64,000 bases of DNA from Bacilli bacterium (GTDB taxonomy: Bacteria > Bacillota_I > Bacilli_A > RF39 > UBA660). The notes beneath the pieces were generated by a model, which was not told the origin of the DNA, ran no database searches, and worked only from the letters and a program-made list of their open reading frames with translations. The stretch's first letter is position 1. Each line of letters starts with the position of its first letter. Location of the stretch: positions 29,615 to 93,614 of the forward strand of contig JAFQQE010000010.1 of assembly GCA_017411405.1 (NCBI GenBank), given 5' to 3'. Positions 30,161 through 32,898 of this stretch are shown here, piece after piece. Both the position numbers and the translations under genes were made by a program.

Positions 30161-30420
30161 TTTTTTATTTATTTAGTAAATTTTTCTTATTATCACTTCC
30201 TATTAAAAAAAGAGGATAATAAAACTTATCCTCCTTCAACCAAAACATAAATGCACAAATCATTTAAGTTGTAAATATACTAACATTTTGTTAAAACTTA
30301 TTTTTATATCATGTATAAAATAATGATTTTTGCGTTTATATTATTTTTTTTTATTATTTTTAATCAAATAAATTCGTTTTAAACTGATTTTTAGGTGTTT
30401 TAGACAATATAAAAAAATTG
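30161..30420. repeat. Copy 2 of the roughly 270-bp conserved non-coding element.
   Basis: Near-identical to 29041-29350, including the GAGGATAA...TTATCCTC terminator hairpin. Confidence 0.7.
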
Positions 30421-30691
30421 ATAAAACTTACTAAAATTTCCAATATTTCATAAACATATTTTAGAAAAAAATAAAGTGAACTATTTAGAACACTTTTGAA
30501 ATATTTAACATGAGAATTGTCATATAAAAACCTCGATTCTATTTGTCCAAGAAACGGGGTTCATATCATATTGGCTTGCCAATAGGTGTGTTACTAAAAT
30601 GACAATTTTAGTTTTTATAGAAGTTACATATAAATTTATATTAATTATAATTGTATAACATTAAAAGATTTGATATAATTTTTATAGGAAC

Positions 30692-30915
30692 ATTTAATAG
30701 TTGGGTGATTGCCGAATTCTTAATAAGGAAGGAGGCGATAATATGTTTAAGAAAGATTTATTAAACACTCATTAATCATACTTATCTTCCTACTAGTATT
30801 ATTACTATTTATAGTTTTGATATGAAAAGAAAATCACCTAACTCAGCAATGATTTAGGTGATGTCAATATATGGGCAACACTCAACATACGAATATTGAA
30901 TGTTCCTTTTTTATT
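30692..30915 (+). ncRNA. Candidate short transcript with a 10-codon ORF (MFKKDLLNTH) and terminal hairpins.
   Basis: Extended -10 promoter ttTGaTATAAT at about 30680-30690. Strong RBS AAGGAAGGAGG then ATG at 30743. Perfect 9-bp hairpin AUCACCUAA-N12-UUAGGUGAU. Terminal stem AACAU...AUGUU plus CCUUUUUU. Confidence 0.3.
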
Positions 30916-31010
30916 ATATGAAGTTTCCTTCATCTATATACATACTAACATAAAAACGACTTATTTTCAAGTCGTTTTAAATTTTATCTCGAAAAGTTCG
31001 AATAACAATC

Positions 31011-31044
31011 AATCTGGTGCCATTGAAGTAGACGTCTACAACTT
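31011..31044. repeat. att-like junction repeat: tRNA 3'-end-like core (caatctggtgccattga) plus the perfect palindrome GTAGACGTCTAC.
   Basis: Palindrome at 31028-31039. The shared 20-mer gtagacgtctacaactttta also occurs at 31996-32015. The adjacent sequence resembles the 3' end and flank of tRNA-Arg (tcaatggtg). Confidence 0.55.
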
Positions 31045-31770
31045 TTATATTTTTCTTATTTTATCATAATAATCATCTATACATTGCTTAAATTTATAAA
31101 AATCCTTCTTATTATTCAAATAGCTCCTCTTATTTATCTCTAGCATAATTGAGGATAATCTTTTTTCTTTTTTATTAAAATATTTATTTGGGATTATAGT
31201 TCCTTTATATGGATGATTAATTTTAACTGAATAGCCATATTTTTTAAAATGTTCAACTGTAAAATTAGTTAATTTTTCATTAACATAAGTATTATCAGTA
31301 CCAATACATATATCCGGTGTATTGGTTATATCAAATAATTTTTCTACCATCTCATCCGAAAAACTATGGAAATCTATAATAATACATCTATTGTATTTTT
31401 TTAATAAGTTAGTAACCATTTTATCTAATTTATTATGATGTTTGTCATAGTATGATTTTAAAATTCTTCTTTTATATTTTTTGTTTGGAATTGCAATAGT
31501 ATTATCACAATCTCTTGTATAAATTACTCCCATTCCTTTTTTTGACATAATTTCTTTTGAATCATCTTTAAATTTTTCAACATCACAAAATAATCTTGAA
31601 TATTTAAAAACTAACTTATGACATTTATTTGGAATTAATTTATCAGTCAAGTAATCACTCAAAAATTTATTTGTTCTTTTTATATAGTTTTGATCATTTA
31701 TACATATATCCCAATATTGTTTAGGAATTTTCAAAGCCGAATGTGGAACATGAAATAAAATACAATCCAT
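31045..31770 (-). CDS. N-formylglutamate amidohydrolase-like zinc hydrolase family protein (cassette gene).
   Basis: 241 aa with ILFHVPHSA near the N-terminus and IIDFHSF centrally (HxH...DFHS pattern of the FGase family). Flanked by att-like repeats. Confidence 0.45.
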   Translation of the reverse strand: MDCILFHVPHSALKIPKQYWDICINDQNYIKRTNKFLSDYLTDKLIPNKCHKLVFKYSRLFCDVEKFKDDSKEIMSKKGMGVIYTRDCDNTIAIPNKKYKRRILKSYYDKHHNKLDKMVTNLLKKYNRCIIIDFHSFSDEMVEKLFDITNTPDICIGTDNTYVNEKLTNFTVEHFKKYGYSVKINHPYKGTIIPNKYFNKKEKRLSSIMLEINKRSYLNNKKDFYKFKQCIDDYYDKIRKI

Positions 31771-31976
31771 TAAACTTCCTCCTAAAAATTATAAATTTCT
31801 CTATATATATTTTATCACATTTTATAGTATTTTTTATTATATTTTGTTATGACAAAATATTTAACCCCCTAGGTATTTTGACATGAATATCAAAACACAA
31901 TCTGAAAAAGAAAAAAAACAATCCTTTTTTTCAGATTGTATATATATATTTAAAGTTCTATTAGTTAGAACAGAAT

Positions 31977-32016
31977 CGTCAATGGTGCTAGTGACGTAGA
32001 CGTCTACAACTTTTAA
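31977..32016. repeat. Second att-like junction repeat (tcaatggtg core plus GTAGACGTCTAC palindrome).
   Basis: tcaatggtg at 31979-31987 duplicates the tRNA-Arg 3' end (32712-32720). The palindrome lies at 31996-32007. Confidence 0.55.
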
Positions 32017-32040
32017 TTTTATATTTTATATCCAATTGTC

Positions 32041-32534
32041 AATAGTTTTCTTTTAATCTCTTCTTTACCACCATCACGTTGATGACATTCGTTTATAAAT
32101 AAATTAATTAAATCTTTTTTATCTTCTCCGAATAAAATTAAATAGTCTCCTTCGATATTCCACCAAAAATCATAAAGACATTCTTCTGGATTGCGGTTTA
32201 TATATTCCTATAATGAAAAATTTCGATCAATATTAAACTTTGATAAATTATATATAAAGTGTGGATTTTCCTTTAACTTATCATTTACTAAATTACTATT
32301 AGCATATATATACATTTGATTATTATCTTTATTGAATATTTGTGTTGGATAGAAGTAATAATCTTCTTTATAATATTCGATGAACATTCTGGAAATAGGA
32401 ATCGCATTTCCTTCATATTCAAATTGTCCCATATATTCTAAATCAATTATTCGTTTTATACCATCATTATCGATTGGAATATTAGCTAATTCACCAATAT
32501 TAGTTATTAAAAATTTGCCTTTTTGTAGTTTCAT
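32041..32534 (-). pseudogene. Cassette gene interrupted by an in-frame amber codon (108-aa ORF plus a 55-codon in-frame continuation).
   Basis: The ORF 32208-32534 ends ...NIDRNFSL-TAG. The same frame continues EYINRNPEECLYDFWWNIEGDYLILFGEDKKDLINLFINECHQRDGGKEEIKRKLLTIGYKI* with no internal Met, ending 25 bp from the palindrome repeat. Confidence 0.45.
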
Positions 32535-32555
32535 AAATTAACTCCTTTCAGATAG

Positions 32556-32640
32556 TATTTATTATATTATATTTTTTGTATTTAGTTATGACAAAATATT
32601 TAACCACCTAGGCATTTTGATATATATATCAAAATGCTAG
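32556..32640 (-). promoter_or_regulatory. Cassette promoter (TTGTCA-17-TATAAT) preceded by a perfect 22-bp palindrome ATTTTGATATATATATCAAAAT (operator-like).
   Basis: On the minus strand, -35 is the reverse complement of 32589-32594 and -10 is the reverse complement of 32566-32571. The palindrome lies at 32614-32635. A homologous but imperfect segment lies upstream of the 241-aa gene (about 31830-31900). Confidence 0.5.
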
Positions 32641-32714
32641 CTGAAAAAGAAAAATCAATCATTTCGATTGATTTCTATATATCAAAGTTCGAATAGTTCG
32701 AACAGATTTATCAA

Positions 32715-32791
32715 TGGTGTCCCAGAAGGGATTCGAACCCCTGACCGCTGCCTTAGAAGGGCATTGCTCTATCCAGCTGAGCTACTGAGAC
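32715..32791 (-). tRNA. tRNA-Arg (anticodon UCU), with CCA encoded.
   Basis: The reverse complement gives GTCTCAGTAGCTCAGCTGGATAGAGCAATGCCCTTCTAAGGCAGCGGTCAGGGGTTCGAATCCCTTCTGGGACACCA. Cloverleaf: 7-bp acceptor, D-arm GCTC/GAGC, anticodon loop CTTCTAA, T-loop TTCGAAT. Confidence 0.85.
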
Positions 32792-32898
32792 ATGACTCAA
32801 TTACAAAAAAAATTATATAATAAAATTAAAGTAATTTCAAGTCTTTTTATTTATTTTTTTAAAAAAAGTATAAGTTATGTTTATTTAACTTATACTTT

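Follow-up and report, generated by a model that had tools for sequence, protein, structure and literature searches.

In staphylococci, the large serine recombinases CcrAB or CcrC integrate the staphylococcal cassette chromosome SCCmec at the 3' end of a conserved gene, rlmH (orfX), where the site is regenerated and elements accumulate in tandem, and ccr-less pseudo-SCC units, which carry no recombinase, are moved in trans or together with a neighbour. A parallel with SCC has been drawn for the ssrA islands of Dehalococcoides, which stand in tandem downstream of the transfer-messenger RNA (tmRNA) gene, are associated with the CcrB-like serine recombinase DsiB and are regarded as integrative and mobilizable (PMC3146451). 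The cis-mobilizable elements (CIMEs) of Firmicutes have lost their integration and transfer genes and kept their attachment (att) sites, and an incoming element integrates into the resident att site; integrative mobilizable elements (IMEs) that use serine integrases disrupt dispensable protein genes, not tRNA ends (PMC5704250). Here we describe two single-gene cassettes stacked behind a tRNA-Arg(TCT) gene in a 64-kb stretch of contig JAFQQE010000010.1 (23% G+C; hereafter the window), which belongs to the metagenome-assembled genome (MAG) of an uncultured 'Bacilli bacterium' and encodes proteins that match MBQ3020930.1, MBQ3020933.1 and MBQ3020938.1, and we compare them with about 60 loci from species genomes and metagenome contigs, numbered L001-L059. 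We hypothesize, with a rough probability of 0.65, that both units derive, as miniature and non-autonomous forms, from integrative mobilizable elements with a serine recombinase, and that accretion has stacked them.

The anchor gene, tRNA-Arg(TCT), lies at 32715..32791 on the minus strand, as does every feature of the array (ARAGORN; Rfam tRNA, 63 bits), and is the sole tRNA gene of the window; its 3' end reads ...GGGACACCA on that strand. Directly after its CCA end come two head-to-tail units that follow one layout: CACCA, a hairpin and an intrinsic terminator, a conserved block of ~50 bp (Block C) with a promoter, one gene, and AAAAGTTGTAGACGTCTAC-N7-GCACCA. Each unit starts with TTGAYRAWTCTG, followed by a 6-7-bp hairpin and then a second hairpin with a T run, and the conserved block is succeeded by a -10 box, a ribosome-binding site and the single gene. 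The core of the first junction, attL, is CACCA, the last five bases of tRNA-Arg(TCT) (32719..32715; junction table, see below). Cassette 1 (31983..32714, 732 bp) extends from TTGATAAATCTG..., directly after the tRNA CCA, to ...GTCACTAGCACCA, and an identical unit stands behind the tmRNA gene in L001. Its first hairpin, H1 (GTTCGAA-CTA-TTCGAAC, 32687..32703), occupies positions +12..+28 after the CCA; a terminator-like hairpin with a T run, which would stop read-through from the tRNA, follows in the RNA fold at 32640..32676; and Block C (32586..32637, alignment A2) consists of the palindrome ATTTTGATATATATATCAAAAT, then GCCTAGGTGGTTAAAT, then the -35 hexamer TTGTCA, with the perfect palindrome TTTTGATATATATATCAAAA at 32615-32634. 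The promoter-like TTGTCA-17-TATAAT ahead of gene 1 (32566..32594) has 11/12 matches, and the cassette closes with the 3' arm AAAAGTT-GTAGACGTCTAC-GTCACTA-GCACCA (31983..32014, palindrome at 31996-32007). Cassette 2 (31015..31982, 968 bp, from TTGACGATTCTG... to ...TTCAATGGCACCA) recurs behind tRNA-Leu(CAA) in L009 and tRNA-Thr(CGT) in L051. It has its own H1 (GTTCTA-ACTAA-TAGAAC, 31955..31971), a terminator-like hairpin with a T run in its fold (31905..31939), a Block C (TTTTGATATTCATGTCAAAATACCTAGGGGGTTAAATATTTTGTCA, 31847..31897; repeat D1, alignment A2) and the 3' arm AAAAGTT-GTAGACGTCTAC-TTCAATG-GCACCA (31015..31046, palindrome at 31028-31039), which is attR of the array.

Compensatory changes are seen in the leading hairpin: H1 has a G-C to T-A change in cassette 2 and in L020 and a G-T wobble in L009. 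The first 75 nt of unit 1 give an RNA fold of -18 kcal/mol (z = -3.3). The hairpin and terminator that head every unit are most simply read as a new trailer for the anchor tRNA or tmRNA together with insulation of the cargo. A search of 30100-32800 against Rfam at a relaxed threshold returned nothing besides the tRNA.

The cassettes are mobile: one and the same unit stands at different anchor genes and in different species. The initial annotation had proposed comparing the locus among related strains and searching for further copies, and both comparisons were productive. L004 shares 99.88% identity with the window along the 14.7 kb that lead up to tRNA-Arg and across it; after the same first 40 nt, this strain has at the same tRNA-Arg a different cassette, with a 114-aa gene, that ends in AAAAAGTTGTAGACGTCTACAACATTAGCACCA and is followed by unrelated DNA. 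L001, in turn, is 99.98% identical to the window over the 11.7 kb from CACCA downstream, including both cassettes, fmt and infC-rpmI-rplT, and has the tmRNA gene as the upstream neighbour of the array. Further afield, the same cassettes are found behind other tRNA and tmRNA genes in other species. The cassette with an N-formylglutamate amidohydrolase (FGase) gene, cassette 2 of the window, occurs at three to four different anchors, namely tRNA-Leu(CAA) in L009, tRNA-Thr(CGT) in an abundant species (L051-57) and the tmRNA array of L001. A cassette with a DUF218 gene, 876 bp of which show 96-100% identity in each 50-nt window (~99% overall), stands behind tRNA-Leu(CAA) in L010, tmRNA in L012, tRNA-Met(CAT) in L029, L033 and L037, and tRNA-Thr(CGT) in L034-36, as well as within the tRNA-Thr array of L032; L010 and L012 represent different species, and the 3' end of the cassette meets at least 8 unrelated flanks. 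Across anchors, the identity of the DUF218 and FGase cassettes is about 93-99%, and near-identical cassettes are found in related gut bacteria behind at least five tRNA or tmRNA genes besides tRNA-Arg.

We scanned a collection with one genome per species for the 3' arm GTAGACGTCTAC-N7-GCACCA and obtained 15 matches, nine of which were chance matches in genomes of 42-66% G+C and six of which came from relatives of 23-27% G+C. Five of these six lie 0.85-1.1 kb downstream of tRNA-Leu(CAA) or tmRNA and share its orientation; the sixth match, in L015, forms the end of a 2.3-kb element, the start of which is a tRNA 3' end at the contig edge. The corresponding scan of metagenomes gave four matches, all of them true relatives. 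Scans of viral contigs for the palindrome arm and Block C gave chance matches only or none, and a BLAST search of phage and plasmid collections with the cassette 5' module gave no match. One variant is a mosaic: the cassette at L030 9636-10547 and L028 8607-9517 has another promoter and another gene (192 aa), is without Block C, and retains the last ~70 nt of the DUF218 cassette, that is, the end of the reading frame and the palindromic arm.

We stress that the join between tRNA-Arg and the array in the window has to be read separately from these comparisons. In the other assemblies the array of the window follows tmRNA, not tRNA-Arg. The window equals L004 up to TTGATAAATCTGTTCGAACTATTCGAACTTTGATATATA and L001 from AATCTG... 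onward, and the switch falls within a 33-bp segment common to cassette starts, to the right of CACCA, inside which the Logan unitig L005 ends. The recombinant join is visible on aligning window positions 32680-32720, where tRNA-Arg runs into GAAATCAATCG, with L001 9052-9100 and L004 14545-14590, two contigs from one metagenome. An exchange to the right of CACCA points to homologous recombination or mis-assembly, rather than recombinase action, at this join, and the link between tRNA-Arg and array may here be secondary, through a real rearrangement between two arrays, or an assembly chimera. The join is no evidence for recombinase action at tRNA-Arg; docking at tRNA-Arg is independently demonstrated by L004.

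To locate the crossover, we tabulated 30 junctions and compared one cassette at different anchor genes. The switch point was at CACCA in 30/30: to the 5' side, the sequence is that of the left partner, either the acceptor stem of the anchor or the N7 plus G of the preceding unit, and to the 3' side it is that of the right partner, either the TTGA... of a unit or the displaced flank. With tmRNA (TCCACCA), tRNA-Arg (ACACCA) and tRNA-Met (GCCACCA) the shared block is CACCA alone. Serial site-specific insertion at a tRNA-type 3' end, as the initial annotation had it, is thus upheld, with discrete units and junctions exactly at CACCA. Its suggestion that the palindrome is the crossover site fails: because the left and right partners switch at CACCA, the exchange falls within these five bases, at least 8 nt from the palindrome, and the palindrome is not universal, TGAAATAACTTT taking its place in the sister elements described below. 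The crossover itself would presumably be a dinucleotide inside CACCA. Dyad symmetry, examined in 29 junctions and 11 reconstructed attB sites, had its centres at -2.5 to -4.5, inside CACCA, but the signal was too weak to decide the crossover position. The palindrome may be a binding arm. As a hairpin it is poor (-4 kcal/mol, z = -0.8), and we rejected a role as an RNA hairpin or a tRNA-like mRNA end because of this weak fold and because the motif is not present in the sister elements; a full-text literature search for the palindrome sequence retrieved one unrelated paper. The N7-GCACCA tail of the units is similar to the tRNA-Leu(CAA) acceptor strand, with which it has 14 nt in common in L020, and this suggests tRNA-Leu as the ancestral target.

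Some of the repeats noticed initially take on a different meaning in the light of these junctions. The initial annotation had reported that the tRNA 3' end and its flank recur inside the array, and the repeat finder returned both D4 (31952-31987 against 32684-32719, 36 nt, 83%, covering tcaatggtg and flank) and D2 (31015-31057 against 31983-32025, 43 nt, 84%, covering the CACCA end and the palindrome), but only the 5 nt CACCA derive from the tRNA, the repeated flank being itself the start of cassette 1. The identical 20-mer with a 12-bp palindrome does occur in two copies, but it lies 8 nt (N7 plus G) from CACCA and not immediately before it; these are exactly the 2 copies of GTAGACGTCTAC in 64 kb, where 0.41 matches with up to two mismatches are expected by chance. 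Similarly, the homologous promoter segment does contain TTGTCA-17-TATAAT and a palindrome, but measures about 190 bp in three blocks instead of ~150 bp; the repeat finder recovered 83 nt of it at 86% (D1, 31833-31915 against 32572-32654). Beyond cassette 2 lies the displaced flank GATTGATTGTTA-TTCGAACTTTTCGAG (30950..31014) with an intrinsic terminator (30953-30978), a trailer unlike the unit starts. It is either the original trailer of the anchor gene, moved away by the insertions, or the beginning of a decayed unit that is older than the two cassettes. Flanks of this type also follow other arrays, and the decayed elements L015 and L058 have them at the 5' end. The next ~800 bp, between the last terminator of the array and the following gene (30150-30950), hold several hairpins and promoter-like sites, no open reading frame (ORF) of at least 60 aa and no Rfam match.

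Larger elements share the ends of the cassettes and encode a recombinase. On a 1.3-Mb contig (L032), a 5.7-kb element lies between tRNA-Thr(CGT) and a DUF218 cassette; it starts immediately after CACCA with GTAAGCAATCTGTCCGAAC, followed by a hairpin and terminator, and ends with AAAAAGTTTGAAATAACTTTCTTACTCGCACCA. Its genes encode a 91-aa protein, a 626-aa large serine recombinase, a Mob_Pre/MobV relaxase and a 460-aa protein, and the recombinase is intact (IYIRVSTEDQ; Pfam Resolvase and Recombinase). A ~7-kb version with a 95%-identical recombinase, kinase-like and UDG genes and identical ends occurs at tRNA-Thr(GGT) in L050, a tRNA-like 3' end in L049, a prophage end in L048 and a tRNA 3' fragment in L059. 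In these five loci, the 5.7-7-kb elements, with an intact recombinase of 626 or 617 aa, are inserted directly after CACCA, and the serine recombinase is the sole recombination enzyme on them; no tyrosine recombinase is encoded. Their constant ends are GTAAGCAATCTGTCCGAAC ... AAAGTT-N12-CTTACTC-GCACCA. Cassettes and sister elements thus have in common their position after CACCA, an N6-AATCTGTYCGAAC 5' end with hairpin and terminator, and the 3' frame AAAGTT-N12-N7-GCACCA. A further link is provided by the decayed element L015, in which remnants of three genes, for the 91-aa protein, the recombinase (55% identity) and the relaxase, are combined with a palindromic 3' arm of the cassette type at the element's end. 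Given these shared ends, and given that L015 links the remnants to the palindromic arm, we regard the cassettes as stripped-down, non-autonomous members of the family. A large serine recombinase, a class which the initial annotation had not singled out, is the likely enzyme. Serine recombinases leave very short direct repeats (PMC5704250), and the direct repeats between cassette and anchor, at only 5-6 bp, fit them.

The recombinases of the L032 type are intact and 88-100% conserved over hundreds of contigs, unlike those of the L015 type. At L031 5700-7500, L058 640-2520 and L015 330-1140, in different metagenomes, the recombinase genes contain nonsense codons, frameshifts or deletions. A conserved protein of ~90 aa without a family match (L032 2191-2466 and 8801-9073, L015 139-357, L031 5254-5526) is always encoded between anchor and recombinase and is also the first protein of a unit that has no recombinase; we regard it as a candidate for a directionality factor or a regulator.

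Block C may explain how such units could travel between cells. The conserved block reads ATTTTGAT-N6-ATCAAAAT/GTCAAAAT, then (A/G)CCTAGG(G/T)GGTTAAATATTTTGTCA, and alignment A2 shows it to be homologous to ~60 bp of the large elements, located 60-110 bp upstream of the point where their relaxase gene starts, with the common pattern ATTTTGAT..GTCAAAAT-YTAKAGGGGGTTA-NNN-ATTTTGWCA. In pMV158, the MobV prototype, the origin of transfer (oriT) occupies the matching position and overlaps the mob promoters, and its inverted repeat lies 8 nt upstream of the nick (PMC5863519). In Block C, too, a conserved stretch comes after an inverted repeat (IR), and IR-N8-YTAKAGGGGGTTA is the predicted nick region. 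L020 retains the block despite an inverted cargo gene, and only the L028/L030 cassette is without it. Because of its homology to the region directly upstream of the relaxase gene, we propose Block C as a candidate oriT that would overlap a portable promoter of the relaxase type. A dif/Xer-like site was considered and discarded, as only CCTAG matched when the block was compared by eye with the dif sequence of Bacillus subtilis.

From these observations we hypothesize the following mechanism. A large serine recombinase acting in trans would join a circular unit to any tRNA or tmRNA gene at its C-A-C-C-A end, and this enzyme would be supplied by the larger sister elements with their layout of ORF91, recombinase, oriT, MobV relaxase and cargo. 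The right-hand attachment half of the unit, CCA-TTGAYRAWTCTG-TTCGAAC, would restore the CCA end of the anchor and add a new trailer hairpin and terminator; the remainder of the unit would comprise the ~50-bp probable oriT overlapping the promoter, one cargo gene and the left half AAAGTT-GTAGACGTCTAC-N7-G. Every insertion would remake the site beside the anchor gene, and units would consequently pile up. Transfer from cell to cell would rely on the relaxase of a sister element and the mating pore of another element. The order of units supports the accretion step: L034 has tRNA-Thr followed by a cassette, L032 has tRNA-Thr, the recombinase element, a cassette and a third, recombinase-less unit headed by a homologue of the 91-aa gene, and L030, compared with L028, has gained a tyrosine-integrase island in front of the cassette; from both comparisons it follows that newcomers insert beside the anchor and older units are shifted outward. 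The island itself (L030 6255-9635, 3.4 kb), of the classical kind, lies between tmRNA and cassette. It has genes for a tyrosine integrase, a repressor of the XRE type and a Rep-like protein, and 17 bp of tmRNA are repeated on either side of it; L028 shows the locus in its island-free state.

As initially annotated, each unit of the window contains one small minus-strand gene. Gene 2 (31045..31770, minus strand, 241 aa) belongs to the FGase family (Pfam PF05013, E = 1e-37), scores far under the HutG equivalog cut-off of NCBIfam and falls in a cluster at 90% identity whose 45 members occur on hundreds of contigs. Gene 1 (32017..32534, minus strand) is a 171-codon frame for a small protein with no assigned function, interrupted by an in-frame TAG at 32205-32207. 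Its nearest relative, P0378, is likewise 171 aa long, is 73% identical in the alignment and has Trp at the TAG position; because of this, and because TAG is an ordinary stop in the window, gene 1 is a TGG-to-TAG pseudogene. The use of TAG as a sense codon was ruled out, given that 10/54 of the long ORFs of the window end in TAG and that TGG stands at this position in the homologue. P0378 itself belongs to the ordinary chromosomal genes, and its neighbourhood shows no cassette motifs. Further cargo comprises a nucleotidyltransferase-like gene in reverse orientation (L020, L021) and the 192-aa gene of L028 and L030. The nucleotidyltransferase-like gene (L020 3052-3867, plus strand, and L021) has a weak ANT(9)-type match and lies antisense to the conserved promoter block.

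Several observations weigh against the derivation of the cassettes from serine-recombinase elements. The 64-kb window, the part of this genome that was searched, encodes no recombinase, relaxase or ORF91 gene, and a tblastn search of it for tyrosine or serine recombinase homologues (E <= 1) was empty, in agreement with the initial annotation, which had seen none and taken the units to be either decayed or moved in trans; they must depend on an enzyme encoded elsewhere. Among the loci examined, no palindrome-type element carries an intact recombinase, the only such element, L015, being decayed; the elements with intact recombinases differ at the position of the palindrome, and their recognition of the cassettes in trans is something that we infer. 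Stop codons or frameshifts disrupt many relatives of the L015 recombinase: the 120 database matches listed for the L015 fragment are all of 203 aa or fewer, and in the contexts of L031 and L058, where no palindromic arm is present, the recombinase genes are interrupted by stops or frameshifts. Neither a circular junction formed by a cassette's own ends (e.g. TTCATCGGCACCA joined to TTGACGAATCTGTTCGAACC) nor an empty site was seen directly; the circular-junction sequence of the large element likewise had no match in the scans of viral contigs, and its left junction matched one integrated copy, L059. Dyad symmetry around CACCA is weak, with 0.35-0.40 complementarity at the best centres against a background of ~0.25, and the evidence for the oriT assignment consists of position and homology. 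Finally, the junction in the window differs from the tmRNA version at +5/+6 and matches the tRNA-Arg version.

Four other explanations were weighed. That the units are remnants of tyrosine-integrase islands at tRNA or tmRNA genes, or are moved by a tyrosine integrase or host Xer encoded elsewhere, is unlikely. Tyrosine integrases classically target such 3' ends (PMC4383910), an element with a tyrosine integrase sits at the same tmRNA directly ahead of the cassette in L030, the L020 cassette end has 14 nt in common with tRNA-Leu, and an Xer-like gene lies 1.5 kb from the L009 cassette. However, the sharing of only CACCA with tmRNA, tRNA-Arg and tRNA-Met is below the 6-8 bp of overlap, with identity in the flanks, that are usual; the L030 element leaves a 17-bp tmRNA repeat and has no ends in common with the cassettes; and the sister elements, whose ends are homologous, encode a serine recombinase and no tyrosine recombinase. 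The cassettes showed no recognisable dif-like site, and neither a displaced 3' segment of the target, usually of at least 15 bp in such islands, nor a tyrosine integrase belongs to the family. We consider it distinctly unlikely, again, that the units are fixed fossils whose cargo is swapped only by homologous recombination between 5' module and 3' arm, with the array of the window static. The recombinant nature of the window, with L004 on the tRNA-Arg side, the L001 tmRNA array on the other and the exchange in the 33-bp segment, would accord with this, as would the L030/L028 cassette with its different gene and the last ~70 nt of the DUF218 cassette, the lower conservation of the FGase cassette 5' module relative to the gene (76-94% against 90-100%), the pseudogene state of gene 1 and the many broken recombinase genes. 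Yet homologous recombination cannot set a ~99%-identical 876-bp unit exactly behind the CACCA of four unrelated anchors, whose downstream flanks are also unrelated, in different species, and the 3' arm is only about 32 bp long.

Single-strand transposition, in which an HUH transposase encoded elsewhere would insert palindrome-associated transposable elements (PATEs) of the IS200/IS605 type, or IS91/Helitron-type elements, 3' of CACCA, is very improbable. There is a hairpin 12 nt inside the left end and the palindrome 13 nt inside the right end, and the element always follows CACCA, always ends in CACCA and produces no further target duplication; but a single HUH enzyme normally binds hairpins that are alike at the two ends, and here the left and right structures have no sequence relationship. 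The palindrome, besides, folds poorly, and the sister elements have a sequence that is not palindromic in its place. An HUH transposase was found in none of the about 60 loci, whereas a serine recombinase was seen among them, and the similar subterminal hairpins and single Y1 HUH transposase of IS200/IS605 systems were not seen. To an integron-type system, with attC-like palindromes, an integron integrase and an attI-like site beside the tRNA, we give almost no credence. Its attraction lies in the stack of single-gene units, each ending in an inverted repeat and with the newest nearest the anchor (L032 against L034), and the initial annotation had raised an integron-like mechanism; the features tested already contradict it. 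No IntI-like tyrosine recombinase is encoded in any of the loci, nor intI in the window; each unit has its own promoter and terminator; the core is CACCA, not GTTRRRY with exchange after the G; the palindrome is perfect, 12-18 bp long and devoid of the R''-L''/L'-R' architecture of attC; the junction sequences do not fit an attC site; and in L020 the cargo gene is inverted within its unit.

We therefore return to the cassettes as serine-recombinase derivatives. Their mobility and anatomy are well supported: the layout of the units, the exact junctions, and the homology of ends and Block C with recombinase- and relaxase-bearing elements are direct observations. A serine recombinase would, judging from the gene content of the sister elements, be the enzyme, Block C a probable oriT, and the units are presumably still active. 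A wider interpretation, which we put forward tentatively and consider possible rather than probable, is that low-GC gut Bacilli possess a general gene-capture platform, integron-like in its working and built of other parts. Serine recombinases would recognise the T-loop GTTCRA at a fixed distance from C-A-CCA, any tRNA or tmRNA gene would become a docking site, and single-gene cassettes with terminator, promoter and oriT would be shuttled between sites and species by the recombinase and relaxase of sister elements. In the literature that we searched, we found no description of single-gene units with their own terminator, promoter and candidate oriT, of insertion exactly after the CCA end at six or more different tRNA or tmRNA genes, or of such a system with a large serine recombinase as the likely enzyme. 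If our reading is correct, no smaller self-contained units of gene traffic linked to conjugation have yet been seen in Firmicutes, each consisting of two attachment halves, an oriT, a promoter and a single gene, and the cassettes would offer reduced-genome gut bacteria without obvious plasmids a route for exchanging single accessory genes, the cargo so far being of amidohydrolase, DUF218, nucleotidyltransferase and kinase type. The trailers of tRNA and tmRNA genes would be hot spots that annotation pipelines take for ordinary intergenic DNA, and a serine recombinase accepting many tRNA CCA ends would be an interesting tool for genome engineering. The shared modules would also act as recombination substrates or as assembly traps, giving rise to chromosome rearrangement or to mis-joins in metagenomes.

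Two other features of the window deserve mention. Downstream of the array, at 28104-30416 on the minus strand, lie tandem-duplicated pairs of small genes, with repeats of 274 bp (96%) and 114 bp (99%); their 200-aa and 117-aa proteins have the motif CYLTTACMKHYLNEFKDDCFELTVLRWFRDNYVNE in common and no family match. At 10806-11297, also on the minus strand, we found a full-length OLE (ornate large extremophilic) RNA, at 228 bits against a gathering score of 50; its host is a gut-type Bacilli MAG of 23% G+C in which sporulation genes are also present.

The cassettes can be compared with several described systems. The Dehalococcoides islands resemble them in that a large serine recombinase has been proposed and some units lack an integration module and are regarded as cis-mobilizable, and differ in being multi-gene islands of about 10-30 kb with a 20-bp ssrA repeat that are directed to the T-loop of a single target (PMC3146451); the cassettes, in contrast, measure 0.7-1 kb, carry one gene, share only CACCA, use at least six anchors and have a candidate oriT and promoter block. 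SCC elements, unlike the cassettes, are large, target a protein gene at a single site and have no conserved portable promoter/oriT module. CIMEs also stand in tandem with integrase-bearing elements at tRNA 3' ends, but they are decay products derived from integrative and conjugative elements (ICEs) or IMEs with tyrosine integrases and have repeats of 8-60 bp (PMC5704250); the cassettes form a uniform, streamlined family, composed of att halves, Block C and one gene, and not random wreckage. In keeping with a mini-IME or CIME, they have att sites like those of an integrase-bearing element, lack an integrase and relaxase of their own and occur at several sites and in several hosts; as regards the att sites of large serine recombinases, which are imperfectly symmetric, 40-50 bp long and have a 2-bp crossover with very little identity between partners, the limitation of identity to 5-6 bp fits, and dyad symmetry is only weakly above background. 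The order of accretion, with the newcomer at the anchor, is that of SCC composite islands, the Dehalococcoides ssrA islands (PMC3146451) and CIMEs (PMC5704250). Tycheposons of Prochlorococcus are similarly anchored at tRNA genes, and their remnants form tandem cargo arrays or islands in streamlined genomes, but they use tyrosine recombinases and partial-tRNA repeats, are multi-gene and have no link to a relaxase or oriT (bioRxiv 10.1101/2020.12.28.424599). With integron cassettes, finally, the units have in common single-gene arrays, a site at the 3' end of a gene, circular units recombined in trans and strain-variable cargo, whereas integrons rely on the tyrosine recombinase IntI, a folded attC and an attI/Pc platform, and their cassettes are mostly promoterless. 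By analogy, then, the cassettes would resemble recombinase-less pseudo-SCC units and CIMEs in mechanism, and in function they would work like the cassettes of an integron.

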